Below, in pieces: positions 21,097-39,833 of a stretch of 64,000 bases of DNA. Numbering within the stretch: position 1 is the stretch's first letter; each line of letters starts with the position of its first letter. The stretch covers positions 576,001 through 640,000 of the forward strand of contig CAVWVI010000003.1 in the NCBI GenBank assembly GCA_963758495.1. The letters are read 5' to 3'. The stretch comes from Oligoflexia bacterium. GTDB taxonomy: Bacteria > Bdellovibrionota > UBA1018. Position numbers and translations under genes: made by a program. The notes beneath the pieces are model-generated. The model was not told where the DNA came from, searched no databases, and was given only the letters and a program-made list of their open reading frames with translations.

Positions 21097-21214
21097 TGGG
21101 GGCATCGAGCTATGTTAGCGCCGAGCTACCTCGGTACTAGTTTCGCCGCGGGCAGGCTTAACTTCTGAGTTCGGGATGGGATCAGGTGTAACCCCGCCGC
21201 TATAGACACCCCCA
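21097..21214 (-). rRNA. rrf: 5S rRNA
   Basis: ACACCTGATCCCATCCCGAACTCAGAAGTTAAGC core on the minus strand; terminal GGGGGTG/TGCCCCC helix. Confidence 0.93.
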
Positions 21215-21394
21215 AACTTGGGAGAGATCTCTGTGCGACAGAATGAAGCACAGTTAAAACTGTTTTTAGATAAAGGCTGAGTCCCTTCTCAGAAACCTGA
21301 GAATAGGGAAGAATAAAAAAAGAGATTTAACTCTTTGATTTTCGCATCAGAATTCATTTTAACTCGATACCTTTACAGGTATTTTATTAAAAAT

Positions 21395-24386
<2,992 letters not shown>

Positions 24387-24892
24387 TTTCTAGCTTCGAA
24401 TCAATGACCTAGTTGCCTAGCTCACTTTTTCTACTCTTCGCCTATTCGCAGATCTCTGAAATCTCCTCACTTCACTTTCGCTCCATTCAGATTTTTCAGT
24501 TCAAAGTCGTCTCGAATCCATCTATTCGGTTCGCTCGTTTCTTTGTTCAGATATTTTGTTCGTGTTCCTGATTTCCATCCATCTCGTGAACTCTTCCTAT
24601 TCCTTTTAAAAAATAAAAAACTTTCCTTCGACTTCCTTCTATCAGTATACATTTTAACTTCTTATGAAATTTAACTTCCATAAAAAGCTCCTTCAGCAAT
24701 TTCTTATTCATGAGAGCGTGATGCCACTTCATAAACTTTCGTTACAAAAGTCTAATCCATTCATCACACTATTATTTTAACTGTACTATTCTGTTGTCAA
24801 AGATCTCTCATCACTGACCCTCGGATAAATCCACTGCCCGTAGACCCAAAGAATTACTTCCTTGGCTAAACTTTATCTATTCTTAACAATCT

Positions 24893-24969
<77 letters not shown>

Positions 24970-25136
24970 GCTGGATCGCAGCCAGATTGCTAATTAAAAC
25001 TGATGTGGTGAATCTCTTGAAAGAGAAAATGGAGAAGAGAGGACTTTAAATCTCAATAAAATTTTTGGTCATCCTAAAACTTCCAAAAAGTAAATGAGAC
25101 TTGACCGGAATGTTTCGTCACTTGCGTGAGAAATGT

Positions 25137-26698
<1,562 letters not shown>

Positions 26699-28269: not shown

Positions 28270-29670
28270 ATGCGTAAGAAAAAAATCCTAATCTGTGATG
28301 ACGATTCATTATTTCACATCCATTTGAAGCATTCTTTATTAAAGGATCAGTTCGAATTGATCTCTGCCTTAAATGGTGATGAAGCAGTGGCAATCGTTAA
28401 AAGTCATTCAATTGATATCTTATTGCTTGATATTCAAATGAGGAGCCGTGATGAAGGATTTCACTTCATTCCTAAGTTTTTAGAGATTGATCCTCATCTT
28501 GCAATTGTCGTAACCAGTTCATTAGTTGACTTTATAGCAGTCAGAGAGGCGATTCAGCTCGGAGCAGCAGACTATATTGTAAAAGACTTGGATTTACCGC
28601 TCTTAATTCACACACTCAACCAAGTCCTTGAGCGTCGCTCCTCATTCAACCCACACCAGCCGAATCATTTTGATACTCTTTCGATCCATAAACAGAACAT
28701 CCTCATTGGAGAGAGTGCCCAAATCCAAGAGCTAAAGAAAAACATAGAAAAAATCCGACGGAGTCATGCAAACGTTATCATTACCGGAGAAACAGGGACA
28801 GGAAAGGAATTGGTCGCGCGTCAACTAAGAACGCCGCTACCTAATGGGACCTTGGCACCGTTTCTTTCAATAGATTCCTCTACCATTCAAAGCTCGATCG
28901 CTGAGAGTATTTTATTTGGACATGAAAAAGGTGCATTTACTGGAGCGGATAAATTAGTCAAAGGCCTCTTTGAAGAAGCCGACAATGGCATCGTCTATTT
29001 TGACGAAGTTTCAAATATGCCATTAGATATCCAAGCTAAGTTACTTCGTGTTCTGCAAGAAAGAGAAGTAACCCGAATCGGTTCATCAAAGGTGCTCAAG
29101 CTCAACTTTCGTGTTATCTGCGCAACGAATCAAAACTTAGAATGTATGGTACAAGCAGGGAAATTTAAAAATGACCTCCTCCAGCGCCTCAATGTAATCC
29201 CGATTTCCTTACCTCCGCTCCGAGAAAGACAGAATGATATTCCGTTACTTATTTCTCAGTTTATCTTAAAGCAACCCACACCTTTTGGAAGTCTGAAATT
29301 TACTGAACGCGCAATTGAGTTCCTTAAAACTTACAGTTGGCCAGGCAATGTACGTGAGCTGGCAAATACAATAACGTATTTGGCCACTATGATCGAAGGG
29401 AGTGAAGTAGATATTTCCGATTTGCCTGCTAAATTTTTGAAAATTGAAAAAGAAACTGATTATATAAATATAACTAAAGAAATTCCGCATAGTCAGGAAT
29501 CATTTTATTCGAGGATTTCGAATTTTGAAAAAACCTTACTCTCACAAGAATACTTACGTTTCGATGGAAATATCATGCAACTCGCTGCTTCATTAAAAAT
29601 GGACAGATCTCATCTTTACACAAAATTAAAAAAATTTGGGATACATAAAACAAGTTCATCGCTCAACTGA
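28270..29670 (+). CDS. NtrC-family sigma54-dependent response regulator
   Basis: Receiver (ICDDD, LLDIQM), GETGTGKE, GHEKGAFTGA, WPGNVREL, Fis HTH. Confidence 0.93.
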   Translation: MRKKKILICDDDSLFHIHLKHSLLKDQFELISALNGDEAVAIVKSHSIDILLLDIQMRSRDEGFHFIPKFLEIDPHLAIVVTSSLVDFIAVREAIQLGAADYIVKDLDLPLLIHTLNQVLERRSSFNPHQPNHFDTLSIHKQNILIGESAQIQELKKNIEKIRRSHANVIITGETGTGKELVARQLRTPLPNGTLAPFLSIDSSTIQSSIAESILFGHEKGAFTGADKLVKGLFEEADNGIVYFDEVSNMPLDIQAKLLRVLQEREVTRIGSSKVLKLNFRVICATNQNLECMVQAGKFKNDLLQRLNVIPISLPPLRERQNDIPLLISQFILKQPTPFGSLKFTERAIEFLKTYSWPGNVRELANTITYLATMIEGSEVDISDLPAKFLKIEKETDYINITKEIPHSQESFYSRISNFEKTLLSQEYLRFDGNIMQLAASLKMDRSHLYTKLKKFGIHKTSSSLN

Positions 29671-30664
29671 TTTTTTTGTCCATTTCAATTTTATGATGCA
29701 CTCCCTTTTTTAAATTATCTTTTTTCACAGCCTGTTTTTTCTTTTTAACCTTATGCTTTTTTAAGCTTGGAAGCAAAACACTGTTACGATCCATGTGTCT
29801 TGAATTACCTCTGGACATCCACAACAAAGAACCTAAAAGCAAGAGCCCTAATATTCCTATAAAAATACTCTTAATAGTATTTTCTAACGTCCATCCCATT
29901 TGTTCATCAATCACCGCTTCTGCAGAATGTTCAAATTTTGATATGACCGGAGGAAGTGGCACTAATACAGGAGCCGGCGGAGGAACGGGTGCAGGCACAA
30001 GATTAAGCACAGGTTGTGAATTGATCATCATCTGATTATCTATAATATTGGGTGATCCATTAGATACCTGAGGTTCCTGGCTAGATATTTGCCTAGATGT
30101 CTGAACCACTCCCTGAGCAACTTCCTGACCAGCCACGTGACTTGCCACCTGGCGCAATACGCCTACTCCTTGAATTAAAACTCTACCAGAAGTAGCCTGA
30201 CGAATTGTGCCATCCTCTTCCAGGATGAGTTTATCCCCCGTCTGAATTAAATTTGGCTTTGCAATATTTCGTGAATTTTTTCGCAGCAACTCATTAAAGG
30301 AATCTGTCTCTCCGTATTTCCATCTTAAAATTCGAACAAACCAATCATTTGGCTGCACGACATAAGTTGAAGTGATCTCAGGTATGCGATAATTTAAAAC
30401 AGTGTTTTCTTGAAGATGCTGATCGGGTTGAAGTTTTTGAACGGCTTGATTATCATCTTGCAACTTCGTCCACCAACTTCGGTGGCCATATAACAGATGG
30501 GCAACCTTTCTCAGAGTATCACCCCGACTTGTTCGATAAGTACTTGTAGTGACAAGTCGCTTTTCTAGGGGTGGATCAGGAGTTGCTTTCTCTCTCGCAG
30601 ATGCAATCGACCCCAATAATAGTAAATACAATAACATAACCTTAAATAAGCCCGTCATAGCCAT
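29663..30664 (-). CDS. exported LysM-domain membrane-anchored protein
   Basis: Signal peptide; YRTSRGDTLRKVA..LYG and YVVQPND...PNLIQTGDKL LysM-like repeats; Pro-rich linker; TM helix and basic tail. Confidence 0.75.
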   Translation of the reverse strand: MAMTGLFKVMLLYLLLLGSIASAREKATPDPPLEKRLVTTSTYRTSRGDTLRKVAHLLYGHRSWWTKLQDDNQAVQKLQPDQHLQENTVLNYRIPEITSTYVVQPNDWFVRILRWKYGETDSFNELLRKNSRNIAKPNLIQTGDKLILEEDGTIRQATSGRVLIQGVGVLRQVASHVAGQEVAQGVVQTSRQISSQEPQVSNGSPNIIDNQMMINSQPVLNLVPAPVPPPAPVLVPLPPVISKFEHSAEAVIDEQMGWTLENTIKSIFIGILGLLLLGSLLWMSRGNSRHMDRNSVLLPSLKKHKVKKKKQAVKKDNLKKGVHHKIEMDKKIS

Positions 30665-30804
30665 CTTTTCGACAAAGAAGGGAAGAATATTTAAAGTTCT
30701 GTTAAAAAAAATAGATTTTGATGCATGTAGTTACAAGAATTAAGTCATTTCCTTAAACATTCCGTGGACCTCAGCAGCTCAATATCGAACCTGGTTCCAA
30801 GCCA

Positions 30805-30848
30805 ACAAAAAACAGATGGGTGAACACGTTCACCAGTATTCACCCATC
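30805..30848 (-). terminator. putative intrinsic terminator
   Basis: GATGGGTGAA/TTCACCCATC 10-bp inverted repeat followed by TGTTTTTTG on the minus strand. Confidence 0.55.
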
Positions 30849-30916
30849 ACGGATAACAAAATAGCTCAATGAGCTATAAGATTAGATAAGGAAAGGCGAG
30901 CTCGAAACCCTTCTTT

Positions 30917-31790
30917 TTACCAGCATAGGCACAGGTATGGATAAGTTCCATAACCAGTCGAACAGGTCGATTCATCTCCCCAACTGTCGTTGAGCGAATT
31001 GAGAAATTGAGCGGCTTCGCCACCAAAACCGGATGATGCCCAATCATTACAGTTTCCATTATTTGAGCCACCCGGAAGAGCTCCGCCTGAAACGAATCCA
31101 GTCCAAGCCTGGGTGGATGCAAAACCGGTTCCGGTCATTTCCGCATAGGGAGGGGCGCTTAAAGCTATAAAAGCACTAATGCTTGAGGAGATTTGAGTTC
31201 CACTTATATTGAGGATGGGCAGTGATGTGGGTACACTGAAGGTGGCAGCCAAAGTCGTTACCCCAGCAGTTGCAGAATACCCCAGTAAGGCGACAAAATT
31301 ACTACAAGTGATTGATCCAGAATAGGTACTCGTATAATCGGTGTGGCACTGATTCGTGGTAGTTGTCCTTGAACCCACATTTTGGCCCGAATAAGACGAA
31401 TTGGACTCGTACATATAAATAGGCGTACTAGCACTAAATGAAAGAGTGCACGACGAAGTGATGGCCCCTGTTGTATAGGTAGAGCCACTCCAACTTCCTG
31501 CTGGACAAGTTCCTCCTACAGTATTTGATAGAGAGTAACCTGTGCTAGCCGTTACTGTAAAAGATTGAGTGGAGTTATAATTTACTGTTTGAGCCGTACT
31601 AGGGCTTAGAGTGACATGACTCCCGGATGGAGTGACTGTTGATGTCATCAGAGTAGCACTAAACGTAACCGTACAGTCTGCGGTAATGGCGCCGGTTGTA
31701 TAAGTAGTACCGCTCCAGGTTCCTCCTGCACAGCTTCCACCTACCGTGACTGGGGTTGCGTAGCCACTATTAGCAGTCACTACGAAAGTA
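30917..31790 (-). pseudogene. 5'-truncated Ser/Thr/Gly-rich surface protein with InlB B-repeat-like domains
   Basis: Two repeats F.VTA..GY....VGG.C..G.WSG.TYTTGAIT..CT..FSA; composition switches abruptly to AT-rich non-coding-like DNA above about 31790. Confidence 0.6.
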
Positions 31791-31928
31791 ATGAAGGGGT
31801 AACAGCTATTTTTATAATAATTTAAGAATAATAATATTATAAATTCAAGTGAAATTATTATCTTCACTCGAAAGATCAAGGCAAAAGACTTTCCAACACA
31901 TTGGGATTGCGAGGCGGGTCTTCGGATA

Positions 31929-32041
31929 TTGAAAAGAAGAGCTTACGGATATAGAAGCTATGAAAACTATCGGCTCCAAGTCTTGAATGCTTGCTCCTGA
32001 CAGTGTCTTGAAGGTTTACCCACTACGAAAAGATATGAATC
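31929..32041 (+). mobile_element. ISL3-family transposase 3' remnant and probable right end
   Basis: 31929-32000 translates LKRRAYGYRSYENYRLQVLNACS*, typical of an ISL3 C-terminus; followed by TTACCCACTACGAAAAGATATGAATC. Confidence 0.65.
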
Positions 32042-32127
32042 TTTGCGGGTCATTCAGGCTATCTTGTAGGATTAAGATTAATAAAACGGTGAAAAAATGG
32101 TGGACCACCTCTGACAAAGACGAAAAA

Positions 32128-32499
32128 ATGCTCCACATTTGGTATCCTTCCGACATTATAGAGTTTTCTTGGATACCTCAGTACAAAAACGTGACGTTGC
32201 TCCACCAAAAATATGTTGAGGAGAAGCGCACAACCGCCCAAATTGCCAAGGACTTCAAATGCTCCACAACTGTCATTAAGCACCATCTCGCCAAAGCGGG
32301 TATCCCTCGCAGGAGAGGATCAGTCATCAGCCTCAGTAGTAAAAGGGCTATCAACCTGATCCTCGAATACAGCCGTCTCGGGATGAGCGGAAGAAAGATT
32401 GCCGATGCACTCAATCAGATGGGATTCCCCCCGACAAAAAGGGCAAAAAGCTGGGGAAGGAATACGGTATACCTGATCCTGAAACAATACTCCAAGTAA
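32128..32499 (+). CDS. small HTH/recombinase-domain DNA-binding protein
   Basis: LHQKYVEEKRTTAQIAKDF..S.T.I...L...GI and GMSGRKIADALNQMGFPPTKRAKSW.RNTV..IL; start set at ATG 32128 inside the att repeat (ORF track 31987). Confidence 0.65.
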   Translation: MLHIWYPSDIIEFSWIPQYKNVTLLHQKYVEEKRTTAQIAKDFKCSTTVIKHHLAKAGIPRRRGSVISLSSKRAINLILEYSRLGMSGRKIADALNQMGFPPTKRAKSWGRNTVYLILKQYSK

Positions 32500-32504
32500 G
32501 CCCA

Positions 32505-32534
32505 AAGTGAGCCGTCAGAAATGGCGGCTCACTT
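32505..32534. terminator. hairpin between convergent genes
   Basis: AAGTGAGCCGTC-agaaat-GGCGGCTCACTT. Confidence 0.55.
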
Positions 32535-32565
32535 GATTTAGGTTAGCTAAATTGTGACACTGGAG

Positions 32566-33140
32566 CTATTGTCTGTGATTTCTATCCTGACGCGTCTTTG
32601 CTTCTAGGTCGCGCATAGTTTGTAGATCGAGCCCTACCCCTTGATTAGAAAGCTGTTTCAGCATGAGGTAAAAAGAATAGCCGGTCCAATGTAAACAGGT
32701 TCGTCCATACACTAAGTCTTCATACATAGCTCTGAAACTGATCCCTAGTGTATGGATCTGATCAAGTTGAGCCTTTTCTTGATCAGGAAGGGAAGAATAT
32801 ACCTGACTAAATTTCTCAATCGCAGTATTCGATTTTGTCTTCGCAGAGGATTGATCTAGGTCTTGGTCAGCACAAAGCCCAATAGCTAGTTCCGCAATTG
32901 CATTTAAAGTACCTAGCGTAAGCTTAGGCAGTGACTCTAGATCCCGTAAATCTGAACACAACTGAGATGGGTGATTTACAATGATTTGAATATCTTCATC
33001 TGAAAAACGGCGGCTAGGCTCATACGGATTTGTAAATGCTTTTACAGTGAGTAAGCATTTTTTAAGCTCGCGAATGTCGTAGCATCTCCCATCTTGACCT
33101 TGAAGAAAAAGTCTTTGGGTATCTCTAGAACAGGCACGCT
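32566..33140 (-). pseudogene. probable frameshifted C-terminal part of the M28/ankyrin gene
   Basis: Frame is open from about 33140 with no ATG; begins QGQDGRCYDIRELKKCL...TNPY...FSDEDI and continues into track ORF 32566-32961. Confidence 0.5.
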
Positions 33141-34813
33141 TTCAAAAAGAGTTTCATCGTTTCTACAGACTGTTTAGGTTCAGACTCTATCTTAACGTCA
33201 GATAAAAAGGCTACAGGCGGGCGAATCCGAACTTCCGAAGCCAGTGCCTCGTCGATAAGTTCTATAATCCGGGGATTTTTAGACTCCTCTGCAAAATCGC
33301 TCACGGTAGCGGCACTTTTGTTTTGAACGTGTGGATCTGCATTAAGGGCAAGCAAAGCTTCAGTAATACCTACGTCTCCCCCTTGCGCCGCAAACATCAA
33401 CGTCGTACTGCCATATTGCAAATCTTGAAAGTTAACGGGCACTCCTCTTTTGACGAGATCAAGTGCCGCGCCTAATTTCTTGCTCCCCAAAGCAAAGTGA
33501 ATTGTCAGTTTTCCACCATTCATAGCGTAGAGATCGGCACCGGCATGCTGAAGTTCTAGGATAGCATCCACATTCCCTTGCTGTGCAGCAAACATCAAAG
33601 GGGTAGATAAATGTTGTCTGTGTCGATAGTTAACGAGATCAGGCACTTGTCGAATCCAGTCCATTACTTTGTTGAAATCTCCTACATCTAAAGCCTTGTC
33701 CAACTCTTTTTCTTGGATTGATTTTTCTTGAATTGATCCCTTCCAGTCGTCAAGTTGAACTATTGTGGGTCGTCCTCCAAGTAGAAAAACCTTTGCAACA
33801 TCTACGGCTGCCGAAGTGACTTGAGTGGCAAAATCAAAGTTCAAGGTTGCCTCTGTATCGAAGTTAGTATGGTAATAAGGGTTTCTGCGTTCAGCACCGT
33901 TAAACAGCAAAAGAGCAGGAAATTCATTTTCTTCGAAACTGACATGGTCTGAGCGGTTCCATCGAGCACCCCAGTCGTAAGCTTTTAATTTGCGATGCAA
34001 AGCCATCTGCATGAATGTAAGTCGAAGTGCTCTAGATGCTGGATTAGTGACAAAAGCAATATGGTCCGTAAAAGAACTTTCGGGATTTCTACCTGTATAA
34101 CCAATCATTTCGAAGACAATGCTGGATACGATAGTATCGCCACGCTTTCGAGCTTCCTTTAAATAAGCTTTTGATCCGACCATGAAATCTTCCTCTTGAT
34201 CCCAGAGAGCTAATTTCAATGTCCGACCCGATTTTTGTTTGGCGAGGAGTCGTGCGCTTTCCAAAACCGCCGCTATTCCACTCGCATTATCATCAGCCCC
34301 AGGAGAAGTCGGTACAGAATCATAGTGGGCAGATAGCCAGACCTGTTCGTTTGGCAAATCACTGCCTTTCAGGGTAGCAATGATATTCGTTCCTGTTGAA
34401 TACTTGTGAAGTTCCACCTCATAACCCAGAGATTCAAGAAAGCTCACACAATACTGTTGTACATACTGCCAGTGAGGTGAGTTTTTTGTGCGAACACCTG
34501 TAACTTCACTTACTAATTTTCGATATTGGACAGGATCAGCGACTGTATTTTTACTTTCTACTGGATTGTGAAGGTCAAAAATAGTCAAATGCGGCAACAA
34601 GTAGGGACCAACCGGATCATAACTTTGCTCACTTAACTTCAATACTTTAGGCGTTGGAGGTGGCATTACCGTTGGAGGTGGCATTACTGTTGGTGCTTTT
34701 TTATAATTCCCCTGCTTAGAGCGACCCTGTCCATAGGAGGACTGCGCTTGAAGAGCCAAAGCAATAACAAATAAAACGACTAAGTTTTTAACGGCATAAT
34801 CGAGGCGTATCAT
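33125..34813 (-). CDS. secreted M28-family metallopeptidase fused to ankyrin repeats
   Basis: Signal peptide, PTVMPP repeat; SAHYDS, GADDNASG, QEE, FEMIG, SDH, YYHT; TPLMFAAQQG and TTLMFAAQGG ankyrin repeats. Confidence 0.85.
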   Translation of the reverse strand: MIRLDYAVKNLVVLFVIALALQAQSSYGQGRSKQGNYKKAPTVMPPPTVMPPPTPKVLKLSEQSYDPVGPYLLPHLTIFDLHNPVESKNTVADPVQYRKLVSEVTGVRTKNSPHWQYVQQYCVSFLESLGYEVELHKYSTGTNIIATLKGSDLPNEQVWLSAHYDSVPTSPGADDNASGIAAVLESARLLAKQKSGRTLKLALWDQEEDFMVGSKAYLKEARKRGDTIVSSIVFEMIGYTGRNPESSFTDHIAFVTNPASRALRLTFMQMALHRKLKAYDWGARWNRSDHVSFEENEFPALLLFNGAERRNPYYHTNFDTEATLNFDFATQVTSAAVDVAKVFLLGGRPTIVQLDDWKGSIQEKSIQEKELDKALDVGDFNKVMDWIRQVPDLVNYRHRQHLSTPLMFAAQQGNVDAILELQHAGADLYAMNGGKLTIHFALGSKKLGAALDLVKRGVPVNFQDLQYGSTTLMFAAQGGDVGITEALLALNADPHVQNKSAATVSDFAEESKNPRIIELIDEALASEVRIRPPVAFLSDVKIESEPKQSVETMKLFLKACLF

Positions 34814-34917
34814 TACAAATAAATAACAACAGGTGTCAAACCAAACCATTTGGTCACTTAACATTTTTCAGTCACCACAGACTCGACCGGAGTAAACAGC
34901 AGGATTACTCCAAATCC

Positions 34918-35619
34918 TTACACAATATCTTCCGTCTTGATGTCACTCTTGATGGAGAACTTCTTGAGTTTGAGGGAGGCGATCTGGCTCGCGGCATTCA
35001 CAAAGGCAGGGGTGAAATCATGAGCCATCACGATAACACGAAAGCGATCTCCAACCGTCTTTCTTATCTCTGCCATCTTGGAAACCAGTCCACCGAATGT
35101 AGTTTCATGGAGTGTGCCGCTCTTGATCTCAACCAGAGTAATCCTCCCGCTGGTGTCTTTGCACCAAATATCAAAGTCCGCACCCACTTCAGATGGAGGC
35201 TCCACTATCCGAAGTCCTTTCTCGATTTTGTCGAGGTCATTCTTAGCGGCGGAAGCCAAATCAACTGCTAGGGCAATCCCTTTCTCCATGCGGAAAGAGT
35301 CGGGTACAGACCGAATCCCTTTCCAAAGTGCGGTCTTTGCCAGCGCAAACAGGATGTCGAGCACTTGATCTTGCGGAAGACTGTCATTCTCTGCAATCAC
35401 TTCCACCTTTCGCTCTAAAGCCTCCAATAACTCAACATTTTTGGCGGTGATTTCGTTTCTCTCGTTTGTCCAGTTCATGACTGAAGTGGGATTCACCCCC
35501 AGAAGGGTAGCGAGTTTGCGCACGGATAAGTGATTTCGGTGCATAAAACTTTTGACGTATTCCTGCGCGTTTTTGATCTTTTTCACGATTCTCACTATAA
35601 CATTTACTATACCATTCAA
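34918..35619 (-). CDS. XRE-type HTH fused to a PD-(D/E)XK (NucS/restriction-like) nuclease domain
   Basis: LSVRKLATLLGVNPTSVMNW HTH; DFDIWCKD..G.ITLVEIKSG motif. Confidence 0.7.
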   Translation of the reverse strand: MNGIVNVIVRIVKKIKNAQEYVKSFMHRNHLSVRKLATLLGVNPTSVMNWTNERNEITAKNVELLEALERKVEVIAENDSLPQDQVLDILFALAKTALWKGIRSVPDSFRMEKGIALAVDLASAAKNDLDKIEKGLRIVEPPSEVGADFDIWCKDTSGRITLVEIKSGTLHETTFGGLVSKMAEIRKTVGDRFRVIVMAHDFTPAFVNAASQIASLKLKKFSIKSDIKTEDIV

Positions 35620-35743
35620 TATAACAAGTTCATACGAAAATAGGTGAAATCAGACACATAAACTTACTCTTATTTACACACTAATATACTTTCATACGAT
35701 TTATGATGGACTTTTATTTAACACTTGAGCTAATCTCTTTAGT

Positions 35744-36208
35744 ATGAGTGCCTGTAAAGTAAACTCGCATAAGGGCGAGTCAGACAGGGCTGTTCATAAA
35801 CTTTGTACGAAATGTAACCGTAAACAGCCCCTTAACTTGTTCTACACAAAGGGAAAAGATCGTAAGGGCAAGGTCCGACACGATCCCCTTTGCAAAAAAT
35901 GTAAGCTCGCACTTCGAGCGCGGAACGCCGAAAAACTTCGGCTTGTGCGACCACGGTCAGCACCCCAGAAAAAGATCAATCTCCGATCCTGTGGATTCGT
36001 CGAGATCGTCAATCAACTTGGCGCGTACCTGCCTAGCCAAATCAGGACATGCCTCACAAACCTCACTCACGAGGTTGTTTTTAGTTCACGACCACCTGAC
36101 GATACAGACCTGACCCTGAGTTCCGCCTTACGAGAGGAAGGAACTCATGAACCAGAAGCCATCACGGAAAATCCTGCTATTCAAGAAGCGGGTTCAAAAA
36201 CTCGTTGA
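35744..36208 (+). CDS. hypothetical protein with C4-type zinc-finger N-terminus
   Basis: CTKC....PL..FY...CKKC; divergent from the XRE gene. Confidence 0.55.
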   Translation: MSACKVNSHKGESDRAVHKLCTKCNRKQPLNLFYTKGKDRKGKVRHDPLCKKCKLALRARNAEKLRLVRPRSAPQKKINLRSCGFVEIVNQLGAYLPSQIRTCLTNLTHEVVFSSRPPDDTDLTLSSALREEGTHEPEAITENPAIQEAGSKTR

Positions 36209-36652
36209 AGGTCGGGACTATTCTTCACAGCCGATCCTTGGGCTTGATGCGATAAGAGGACGATCCGGGTTTTACAAGATCAATCCTCAAGAAGTCTTCA
36301 TTCTGAACGACATCTTCTCCCGCTTCGTCGCGCTCGGTGGAAATTTCGACAAACTACTCGGCTACTGTCGCCGAAGGAAGTACACCACCAAAATCCAATC
36401 CTACCAATGTTCGAGGAAACTCGTTTCAAAGAAGACGGGCGGAAACCATGTCCCGCGCCTATCTTTGGAGCTACTCACCAATACAAAGATTTTTGGCTAT
36501 GGCTCGATCATCGACCATGATGACGTTTTTTCTGATCTGCAAAAAGAAGGGAAGCGTCTGGTTTTACCACTCGCACATGGTTGTGTGATTGATCCGCCTT
36601 AGCTGAAAAAGTCAGAGCAATTCTGCTCGATCAATTCAACATAACACTCTAA
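36147..36652 (+). CDS. recombinase DNA-binding-domain-only paralog (frameshift near 36600)
   Basis: PILGLD...GFYKIN..E...IF..F......C....Y.TK aligns by eye with the downstream recombinase; no RVST catalytic domain. Confidence 0.6.
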
Positions 36653-36665
36653 CAAAGGAGAAACT

Positions 36666-38413
36666 ATGAGTGTAGGACCGAAAGAACTGATGAGAAGACT
36701 GCTTAAACGTGCAGATAGACGACTGTATTTCGCTGCGATTGTCCGTGTTTCAACACAAAGGCAGGGCAATGTGCTTCACGGCTCAAAAGAACAGCAAAAC
36801 CACTTTATCGACAACTACCTTGCAGACTAGAAAAGCAATTGAACTGCAAAATCATCCTTTCAAAAAGAGTGGTGGAAGAAATGAGCGGAGGTGAAGACTC
36901 CATTATCCATAGAACAGAACTTCTTGAGGTCATGAAACTGATGGAAGCGGGGTATCTGGATGGAATCATTTACGAAAAGTTGGACCGCCTTTCCCGAGAT
37001 CAGGAGTTCAATATCCGCATCCTAAAAACCGCGCAGAAAGCCAACTGTGCCATCGTTCAGGTGAACAAGGGATTCATTGATCTGAAGCAACGCTCCGATC
37101 GTCTAGGTGTCACGCTGGAAAATGTAGTTGCAGAGGACTATCGTTTTGAACTTCAGGAGAAGGTTCAAAAGAAAACCCGTGCCGCTCGCGTGAACAACGG
37201 CAAGGATAACAGCACCACTCCTGTCCTCGGATTGGACCCGCACCCGACGCAAGCAGGTTTTTATGTCATCAACAAAGAGGAACAAAAGATGGTGACCGAA
37301 ATCTTCTCCCTCTTTGCAAGAACCTCAAGTTACGACGCGGTTGTGAAATACTGCCAAGAAAAAGGGTACAGGAGCAAGACCCGCATGACGAAAGAGAAGA
37401 TCGACAAAGAGGGGAACCGTGTGGCACCGCGAATGATCGGGGGAAAGCCAATTACCCCCACTATCTATTACGATCTGTTTAAGAATAAGAAAATTCGAGG
37501 TATCGGACGATTCAAAGATGATTGGGAACAATACCCCGACAAGCAGGATGTAAATGGTATAGTCCATTACAAGTTCCGCCACGACCCCGTGGTTCCTCCT
37601 GAATTGACCGTACAGGTTGATGCTGTACTTGAACGAATTGCCAAAGAACACGTGAAATACGGGAAGTTCGTGTACTTACTTCTGGTATATTCTTCACGAG
37701 TGACGGAAAGCGAATGAAGGGGACTGGAGGAAACAATATTGAAAACGGTCGATACAGGTACTATTCAAACTCCACCCTCAAACAAAGCATTCCAAAAGAT
37801 GAGATCGAAGCCCTCATCATCAAACGGATCAAGCACTATCTCGCCAACAGCGGGACCGTTGCATCAGCTTCTCGAAGAGACTCTGAAGAACAAGCACTCC
37901 TTTGTACCCATGTTCGAGGAGCAAATCCGAGAAGCCCAAATCAAAATGGATGAGGCGAGACTTGCCATCGATAAGTTCTCAGACACAATCCAAGCTGCGG
38001 TTTTGGATAAAACACAAAATCTCACCGAAGTTTGTAAGGTCATGCTGGAGGAAAAGACCAAAGCTCAAGCGACCGTGGAAAAGCTCGATGCGGAGATCAG
38101 GGAACTGGAACGGAAGAAGATTATCGCAAAGGACCGGTTTGAGAACTCCACACTACCCGACTTCTTGCAGAGGACCGTTCAGCATTTTGAAAAATTGCCT
38201 GATACTGAGAAAAAGAAGATCATCCAAACGATCATCGCTCGTATCGTGATTGACCCTGCCAAACCTGAAAAAATTGAATTGCTGATTAACCCGGACCCTG
38301 AAGGCTCACCGTTGGTAAGGTGGAGCATAAATTCTATTAAGTCAGAAATGGTGGAGCTGATCGGAGTCGAACCGACGACCCCCTGCTTGCAAAGCAGGTG
38401 CTCTACCAATTGA
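36666..38413 (+). pseudogene. large serine recombinase (integrase) with three frameshifts
   Basis: AAAGGAG RBS, ATG 36666; IVRVSTQRQ catalytic Ser, KLDRLSRD, recombinase domain, YLL/SG...YRYY, coiled coil, KKKIIQTIIARIVI; frame changes near 36825, 37680 and 37855. Confidence 0.85.
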
Positions 38414-38424
38414 GCTACAGCCCC
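38349..38424 (-). tRNA. tRNA-Ala(TGC)
   Basis: GGGGCTGTAGCTCAATTGGTAGAGCACCTGCTTTGCAAGCAGGGGGTCGTCGGTTCGACTCCGATCAGCTCCACCA. Confidence 0.98.
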
Positions 38425-38898: not shown

Positions 38899-38936
38899 TT
38901 ATTTTTTAACCAAAACTCTTCCTTCGCGGCAAGTAC

Positions 38937-39137
38937 GTAGTTCCTTTAGGGCTGTTGACAAGCACTGAAAGGAGTCCTGTTGCGCCATAAAGATTAAATA
39001 AGTAGTTCCTTTAGGGTTGTTGGTAAGAACAGTGAGAAGTCTGTTGCGCCGTAAAGATTTGGATTCCCGGCGCAACAAGACTTCTTACTGTTCTTATGAT
39101 TTGAATTCCCGGCGCAATAGGACTCCTTTCAGTGCTT
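38937..39137. repeat. two nested copies of a long palindromic (REP/MITE-like) element
   Basis: Outer arms 38960-38986 and 39111-39137; inner arms 39024-39051 and 39068-39096; each copy preceded by GTAGTTCCTTTAGGG. Confidence 0.85.
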
Positions 39138-39833
39138 ACCTTTGATGAGCTCTGCACAATTTAAGTACCGATTTAATGTCTGGTACGCTTGGTTTCCAGA
39201 AAGATAGAATAAAAGAAGAAACAAACCTAAACCTACAAACTGAGAAAAATCATTAGAAGAAGTCTCTACCCATCCAAGCAAAGATGTCTTTACCCACGTC
39301 ATCTTTTCTTCACCGTCCATAAGTGAATCAATTCCTTGCATGAGCAAAAAAAACACAGCCCCCGCCAAAGCAGTCAAATACTTAGTCCGGTTCTGCATGG
39401 CTTGTAAGTCCATTTTGAAACTCGCGATAACCCATTCCCACTGATCAGCAGAGGCAGGAATTAAACGTGCCATCTCTTCGGAGACGCGCTCTCGCCATAA
39501 GCCTTCCTTTAAAGGTTGCTCCAGCATGGCCGCCCCCCCTCCTCTGCGGAAAAGACCGGGCACTTGAGCAAGAACCTCAATACTTAATATATAGATAGAA
39601 TAGAAAATCGGAACTACAAGAATTAACCAATCTAAATAGTTTCTAAAAGTTCTTGGAATAACCCTCAGCTTTACAAGAATCAGAAGAATAATGGACATCA
39701 GCACTGGCAGGAAAAAACACCAGAAAAAGACATTCAACATTCGTCGATTGACGCGATTTCTTTCTTTTTGAATATCTTCGGCAATAAAATGAATAAAACT
39801 TTTATAGAGTTCTTGTCGATTTAACCCCTGCAT
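39129..39833 (-). CDS. hypothetical membrane protein
   Basis: 234 aa with about four hydrophobic helices. Confidence 0.75.
   Translation of the reverse strand: MQGLNRQELYKSFIHFIAEDIQKERNRVNRRMLNVFFWCFFLPVLMSIILLILVKLRVIPRTFRNYLDWLILVVPIFYSIYILSIEVLAQVPGLFRRGGGAAMLEQPLKEGLWRERVSEEMARLIPASADQWEWVIASFKMDLQAMQNRTKYLTALAGAVFFLLMQGIDSLMDGEEKMTWVKTSLLGWVETSSNDFSQFVGLGLFLLLFYLSGNQAYQTLNRYLNCAELIKGKH

Follow-up and report, generated by a model that had tools for sequence, protein, structure and literature searches.

The DNA analysed here, hereafter the window, is a 64,000-nucleotide (nt) stretch of the genome of an Oligoflexia bacterium (GenBank assembly GCA_963758495.1, contig CAVWVI010000003.1, positions 576,001 to 640,000 of the forward strand), in which a non-phage integrative element of 6,251 bp (32102-38352) is inserted at the CCA end of a tRNA-Ala(TGC) gene (38349..38424, minus strand). 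The two extremities of the element carry, both on the plus strand, a large serine recombinase (LSR; 36666..38413) and a small open reading frame (ORF) encoding a helix-turn-helix (HTH) and recombinase-domain-like module (32098..32499). Comparison with relatives indicates that this small gene is very probably, in its normal state, the cut-off C-terminus of the integrase, comprising about 155 residues that would be attached to it only on the free circle. An earlier sequence-only reading of the same DNA had proposed that a short repeat brackets, over about 6.25 kb, an integrative element whose serine integrase targets the 3' end of a tRNA gene. This is borne out by the occurrence of AAATGGTGGA at 32095 and 38346 (spacing 6,251 bp), by the integrase domains PF00239 and PF07508, by the identity of the target as tRNA-Ala(TGC), and by a symmetric element attachment site (attP) that is formed when the two ends are joined.

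By itself the 10-mer AAATGGTGGA is a weak marker, occurring 20 times in the 3.66-Mb genome (about 0.05 copies expected per 20 kb on one strand), and its AAA is mostly generic trailer, present in 17 of 28 unoccupied tRNA-Ala(TGC) genes of family relatives; the boundary call therefore rests on the symmetry of the joined site. Joined in silico, the ends yield 33-bp arms that, compared as inverted repeats, agree at 23 of 33 positions on either side of the dinucleotide GG (32102-32103 / 38353-38354), a degree of symmetry reached at only four of 7.3 million genome positions. The next-best centre in the joined site gives 15-16 matches (34-bp arms), and each junction alone, like the joined empty site, gives at most 16. 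The left junction (32095..32136, plus strand) contains the shared core TGGTGGA from 32098 and the P' arm (32104-32136), with a T-loop-like CGAAA 17 nt from the centre and an outer ATGCTCCAC; the right junction (38320..38355, plus strand) contains the P arm (38320-38352), which lies within the integrase coding sequence and bears an outer GTGGAGCAT and ATTCT 17 nt from the centre. On the tRNA side the T-loop GTTCG stands 13 nt from the centre. Inverted attP arms around a shared dinucleotide, and a motif shifted inward in the chromosomal site (attB), are features of large serine integrase sites, and both are found here. Crossover would take place at the GG, which corresponds to the two bases preceding the tRNA discriminator; the last tRNA bases, including CCA, would then be supplied by the P arm of the element, and in silico attP restores the tRNA end. 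In an empty-site comparison of 29 family loci, tRNA-Ala(TGC) was present in 28 and abutted by an LSR in none. At L192 an LSR remnant lies about 300 nt from tRNA-Ala, beyond a terminator, and at L179 tRNA-Ala is joined directly to the sigma-54 regulator pair seen at 27-29.5 kb of the window, with flanks too diverged to fix the boundary.

The catalytic domain of the LSR is readily recognised (PF00239, E 2e-11), with VRVST (Ser29) aligned to the conserved RVST and a Shine-Dalgarno (SD) sequence, AAAGGAG, before the ATG; a recombinase domain (RD; PF07508) follows. In the putative zinc-ribbon domain (ZD) the cysteine ligands are absent from the near-clade consensus, and the coiled coil and overall fold match in a homolog, P0007. 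As assembled, the frame is not intact: the gene falls into four frame segments separated by single-base breaks near 36825, 37680 and 37870, frameshifts that the earlier reading had not mentioned. The assembly holds uncorrected single-base errors, frame breaks being present in two of 22 conserved host genes (G000:C3 near 901160, 1051760 and 1054460), EF-G and RpoC as read from their N-termini. The last recombinase frame (37739-38413) has no stop before the repeat and reads antisense through the tRNA, as had been claimed, ending ...KSEMVELIGVEPTTPCLQSRCSTN* with an integrated tail of 21 amino acids (aa). Also as claimed, the in silico join gives an LSR ending MVDHL* (TGA 32112-32114), with the ATG of the module at 32128, 13 nt after the stop. 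The module (PF07508, E 1.1e-5) is open in frame from the core, is 32% identical to residues 586-715 of P0007, where the corresponding sequence forms the C-terminal domain of a fused integrase, and aligns as about 20 aa shorter than its relatives between the two HTHs; its structure model comprises two helical HTH units (predicted local distance difference test score, pLDDT, 88).

In the family-wide comparison, 18 of 40 related genomes proved to contain an LSR relative, with an antisense tRNA or transfer-messenger RNA (tmRNA) at the LSR 3' end in 13 of these 18 loci; the assemblies carrying the closest LSRs, where named, are mostly Bdellovibrionota, Oligoflexales and Myxococcales. Over loci L002-L162, loci from the own genome being left out, 39 distinct LSR-to-tRNA junctions represent 12 tRNA types and tmRNA (tmRNA in two). 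The LSR is open up to the core in 37 of the 39; over all 39, frames 0, 1 and 2 account for 8, 12 and 19 cases, respectively, and the integrated antisense tail measures 13-33 aa in 11 complete elements. Because both its frame and its length vary, the antisense-tRNA tail is filler; for the same reason, a conserved short tail of the excised form was considered and rejected. In the homolog P0007 (738 aa) the frame continues past the att motif and encodes a domain that shares 32% identity with the small ORF of the window, and further natural LSR-module fusions occur in P0027 (727 aa), at L155 (753 aa) and in five partial sequences. A 793-aa LSR-module fusion of another LSR subtype was also noted (L157:5560-7938, minus strand; G059:C277), lacking the TGG core at the usual distance.

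Of 401 genomes from the phylum, 177 gave a match to a profile of the module. After exclusion of degraded copies (HMM, or hidden Markov model, start >12 or E >1e-12), 77 distinct well-matched modules were retained, and 70 have a TGG core 73-79 nt upstream (65 of them at 74-76 nt). From the core onward every one of these 70 reads open; an ATG follows the core codon in 14 and is lacking in 56. Sixty regions downstream of modules were picked for long contigs from the 150 module matches listed, and two were merged to leave 59 for analysis: 11 contain whole elements ending at a tRNA, 16 have a module and a tRNA or tmRNA without an abutting LSR, and 32 show no pair. In the 10-20 kb loci far ends mostly lay out of reach, the elements being larger or the contigs ending first. 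In every one of the 11 complete elements, among them one with a broken LSR (L153) and one whose LSR lacks its N-terminus (L128), the LSR frame equals the module frame, so that joining replaces the integrated tail of 13-33 aa with one of 152-172 aa. Three tandem-array elements (the second elements of L155 and L048, and L162) behave likewise. Agreement thus extends to 14 of 14 relatives that have both ends, which between them use all three frames (0, 1 and 2) and several tRNA types. The control consisted of hybrid junctions, in which one element of a tandem array meets its neighbour, and of these one in six is in frame; a supposition that the module always lies one frame behind the LSR came from such hybrid junctions and was dropped. 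Permutation of the first 11 elements gives p 9e-5 for frame agreement. Most LSR pairs are less than 42% identical, and the three nearest tested relatives of the window LSR use frames 0, 1 and 2, each matching its own module. It is because of the 14 in-frame joins and the natural fusions of 727-753 aa that we regard the module as the integrase C-terminus. As in SSV1-type integrases, attP lies inside the integrase gene and splits it into N- and C-terminal parts in 14 of 14 relatives, the window copy being off by one base.

These results alter the sequence-only reading in part. Its expectation that the att core lies in the integrase 3' end holds in intact relatives, whose gene spans attP, and its view that the integrase tail changes with integration also stands. 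Its short excised tail is not supported as a design of the system, because 14 of 14 relatives fuse the module in frame; its operon rewiring with a separate small gene is unsupported on the same count and on the 56 of 70 modules that have no ATG of their own.

The att sites of the family share a recognisable layout. When GTTCG was scored at four of five positions or better at offsets 9 to 25 from the centre, a match at offset 17 or 18 was found in 25 of 39 P arms and 37 of 70 P' arms, other offsets giving at most one (P) or two (P') and the flank upstream of modules, taken for comparison, six of 70. In the tRNA arm the T-loop GTTCG is at offset 13 in all 39, so that the attP motif lies 4-5 bp further out than its tRNA counterpart. 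This shift matches that described for the LI integrase, whose ZD motif is moved 5 bp toward the centre in attB (Rutherford 2013, PMC3783163, consulted in excerpt). An outer GGAGG-like motif occurs 27-31 nt out in both P arms and is absent at that place in the tRNA arm; it may be where the module binds. Cognate arms match each other at more positions than non-cognate arms do (mean 16.9 versus 11.5 of 33). In a structure model of P0007, which in fold comparison is closest to serine integrases (E 8e-17), a complete LSR body (residues 1-540) is followed by a low-confidence linker (541-593), which holds the att-encoded residues, and a folded module (599-720); integration would, on this model, therefore remove an accessory domain and not the catalytic core. 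Fold searches with the module returned generic HTH matches only (best Z 7.5), none at E <= 0.001.

Taken as a whole, these data are probably best explained by a widespread family in which the LSR gene spans attP and integration splits off the module. On the circle, as reconstructed in silico, the gene would normally encode the LSR, a linker and a two-HTH module of 150-170 aa. On integration the module would come to lie at the opposite end of the element, deprived of a start codon, and the full-sized LSR body left behind would gain a filler tail of antisense tRNA. The ZD-type domain may recognise the T-loop, the CCA end being read close to the centre, which would account for the many tRNA targets. 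The circle-only module would be a cis-acting DNA-binding extension that favours integration or represses the promoter of the circle. The short form would keep the catalytic, RD, ZD-like and coiled-coil parts and could serve excision together with a separate factor, for which a zinc-finger ORF upstream of the integrase is a candidate. A bolder version, which we hold to be unlikely as a whole, would have integrases across the phylum use the T-loop and encoded CCA end as a near-universal attB, the two-HTH tail of the long form clamping the outer attP motifs to drive integration and its deletion by integration leaving an excision-type enzyme, with the window lineage switching toward a two-gene system.

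Several observations weigh against the split-integrase explanation. The elements are related, so that the p-values overstate the case, and LSR and module distances are only weakly correlated (rho 0.26, p 0.023, n=14). The degraded modules left out of the open-frame count, such as L126 and L136, have stops, and decay is common in the family, the LSR being absent next to the tRNA in 16 of 59 regions. The P0007 model gives the module no fixed position (predicted template modelling score, pTM, 0.39). The window copy itself has its LSR in frame 1 and its module in frame 0, the sole exception among 15 elements; the symmetry of its arms is the highest seen and requires no indel, its T-loop mimics are degenerate (three of five and four of five) though in register, and its module has an ATG of its own, a 20-aa deletion and the longest branch. 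The one-base offset has close to an even chance of being a lesion or an assembly error; the register of the module from the core is the same as in L119, the nearest LSR relative. An alternative that we rate slightly short of even is that the module of this copy is by now an independent gene, the LSR ending MVDHL*, translation re-initiating 13 nt later at ATG 32128 and the module acting in trans from a single operon; the sequence-only reading may thus be literally true for this one copy, given that ATG and the most diverged module of the set. Such uncoupling is suggested by the ATG, by the divergence and deletion of the module, by the single frame open across the P arm (the other two carry TAA stops), by arms in register at offset 0, by a terminator 3' of the module and by an extra stand-alone RD gene, which would point to a lineage using separate DNA-binding ORFs. 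But none of the 14 relatives is so built, 14 of 70 modules have an ATG at this place anyway, no SD is evident before ATG 32128, the outer motifs, which stand at offset 0 here, are displaced by 1-2 nt in 11 of 14 relatives, and the same LSR gene has three other breaks. Those breaks could instead all be real, together with the fourth, making the copy a dead relic in which neither integrase form is produced; we think this possible, with the balance tilting against it. Three breaks in 1.75 kb, compared with three in 28 kb of host genes, a normal genome-wide coding cover (87-89%), the frequency of relics in the family and a cargo ORF near 33000 that looks broken too all speak for it; against it, errors of this sort do occur in the assembly, as RpoC and EF-G demonstrate, the matched LSR segments contain no in-frame nonsense changes, and the att arms and terminator are pristine.

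The off-by-one join also allows a programmed +1 frameshift at CTC-TGA-C on the circle, which would add the module to some integrase molecules: a +1 shift at that stop enters the frame of the module, and the sequence resembles the prfB frameshift site CTT-TGA-C. Re-pairing from CUC to UCU is poor, however, the TGA belongs to the symmetric att motif, and the 14 in-frame relatives need no recoding, which together make this very improbable. A further proposal is that the module has no role in directionality and is a circle-only repressor or partition-like DNA-binding domain, fused to the LSR merely so as to be expressed after excision. Between it and the LSR body lies a long linker of low model confidence, its likeness is to tandem HTH proteins of a generic kind, and the short form is already a full-sized LSR. 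Yet its second HTH is of the PF07508 type, like the att-binding RD of the LSR itself, and the outer motif, present in both P arms, is missing from the tRNA arm; we consider this proposal unlikely.

A close described counterpart in bacteria is DsiB of the Dehalococcoides ssrA genomic islands (McMurdie 2011, PMC3146451; consulted in excerpt, as are the other papers cited here except where a main text is named). In DsiB, a serine recombinase of the CcrB-like kind, the 3' end of the gene invariably overlaps the att repeat, as does that of the window element, and the stop codon lies only beyond the island; tandem arrays occur, and the authors suggested that full function of the enzyme may require the circle or a neighbouring island that supplies a 3' gene fragment (PMC3146451). 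Those islands use tmRNA only, in contrast to tRNA-Ala here, and carry a six-gene module (DsiA, RecF-like, ParB, Mom) of which nothing is found among the ORFs of the window element; the excerpted text of PMC3146451 does not name a missing C-terminal domain, a frame test or a T-loop motif for DsiB. The window LSR has only weak matches to CcrA, CcrB and XisF, far below cut-off. The suicidal integrases of SSV1, pTN3 and pT26-2 likewise have attP within the gene and are split on integration into N- and C-terminal parts, but they are tyrosine recombinases described as exclusively archaeal, their pieces inactive (PMC8371274, in the excerpts used), unlike the present serine enzyme from a genome with a bacterial rRNA operon, in which, on the P0007 model, the whole catalytic and att-binding body would be kept and only an extra tail domain lost.

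The element thus works like a split integrase but fits neither the archaeal suicidal family nor the DsiB family as defined. Another parallel is IntP of myxophage Mx8, reportedly a tyrosine integrase of a temperate phage whose C-terminus is altered by integration; the present enzyme differs in being a serine recombinase of a non-phage element. The gene for IntP extends across attP, according to an excerpt of PMC4383910, which in 2014 also stated that no targeting of tRNA genes by serine recombinases was known. With A118/LI, phiC31 and Bxb1 the LSR shares domain order, an attP symmetric around a central dinucleotide and a motif shifted by about 5 bp between attP and attB (PMC3783163, as excerpted). 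Canonical LSRs differ in that here attP lies inside the gene, an extra C-terminal two-HTH module is present, tRNAs are the targets and the zinc-ligand cysteines are absent from the near-clade consensus. The literature searched, many subscription journals and supplements lying outside its scope, contained no description of a serine integrase that recognises a T-loop or has an in-frame domain encoded by the circle alone; the main text of PMC10083194 does not mention 'tRNA', and the gene split is not described in the portions used of PMC12884075, PMC12424338 and PMC13626063. Viral collections yielded no confirmed relative of the family, only weak generic phage matches, and a plasmid search gave no module match.

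The interest of this system lies in its family-level design and not in the damaged or divergent copy of the window. Set against the statements excerpted from PMC8371274 and PMC4383910, the family consists of serine enzymes that are both self-splitting and tRNA-targeting, and it is common, as its 177 module-bearing genomes attest. Annotations of integrated copies would miss some 155 residues and carry a filler tail, giving the wrong protein to anyone testing it from annotation, and since the shared core measures only 6-12 nt, the elements may escape island-detection programs that depend on a long tRNA fragment. With a long and a short form to compare, the way in which an LSR may set directionality becomes directly testable, and by the T-loop rule attB sites are predicted for nearly every bacterium.

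The remaining genes of the window element include no phage or conjugation functions among its ORFs. Directly 3' of the module is a terminator-like 13-bp hairpin (32505..32534, plus strand) that would end the integrase-module transcript on the circle; a terminator in this position is not a rule in the 11 complete relatives. Within it, 32514-32527 holds GTCAGAAATGGCGG, identical at 13 of 14 positions to the end of the P arm and core (38341-38354), a likeness probably due to chance from its GAAA loop, arm symmetry there being only 12 of 33. Cargo on the minus strand comprises a 131-aa ORF without clear family in the ORF list and domain search, the upstream part of which is probably broken (32566..33124), and a secreted M28 peptidase of 579 aa with ankyrin repeats (33125..34864; PF04389, E 1.6e-37; PF12796). 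An HTH regulator with a weak NucS-like C-terminal domain, assigned from weak domain matches (34918..35619, minus strand), diverges from the integrase unit, and L119 carries a homolog in the corresponding position (E 1.5e-8). Directly upstream in the integrase neighbourhood, on the plus strand, a CxxC...CxxC zinc-finger ORF (35744..36208) is the candidate directionality factor or regulator referred to above; its motif recurs in nine of 11 complete elements, with phmmer matches in four. It is followed by the stand-alone RD ORF (36147..36602, plus strand), which is about 29% identical to the RD of the integrase itself and has three stand-alone homologs at 58-66% identity; as a separate gene it was not found among the 11 complete relatives, seven of which have a second, resolvase-only gene. 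A promoter scan gave 10 sites where 9.0 were expected.

Outside the element, a second, N-terminally truncated module at G000:C4:38356-38694 (minus strand), beside toxin-antitoxin-like and transposase ORFs and with no LSR or tRNA nearby, is likely a relic element end. In relatives, tandem arrays (L140, L141, L138, L121, L048 and L155) place two to four modules in 20-40 kb, and in L140 and L141 no LSR match lies between the modules, suggesting that elements inserted several times at one site and that the integrase was then lost. Next to the left junction a 3' remnant of an ISL3 transposase lies at 31860-32000 (NF033550, E 0.008), of which blastn found no second copy in the genome. Between the element and the sigma-54 pair, 29663-31879 (a LysM gene and a Thr/Ser-rich secreted protein) is absent beside tRNA-Ala in L179 and may be an older insertion. 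The rRNA operon of the window (21097-26698) has only tRNA-Ile in its spacer, tRNA-Ala(TGC) lying about 12 kb away, upstream, in a context with rny and neighbours that is conserved in relatives. Beyond the tRNA, 38931-39138 contains 41-46-nt direct and 27-nt inverted repeats clustered between two convergent genes, resembling a repetitive extragenic palindromic (REP-like) or small RNA element.

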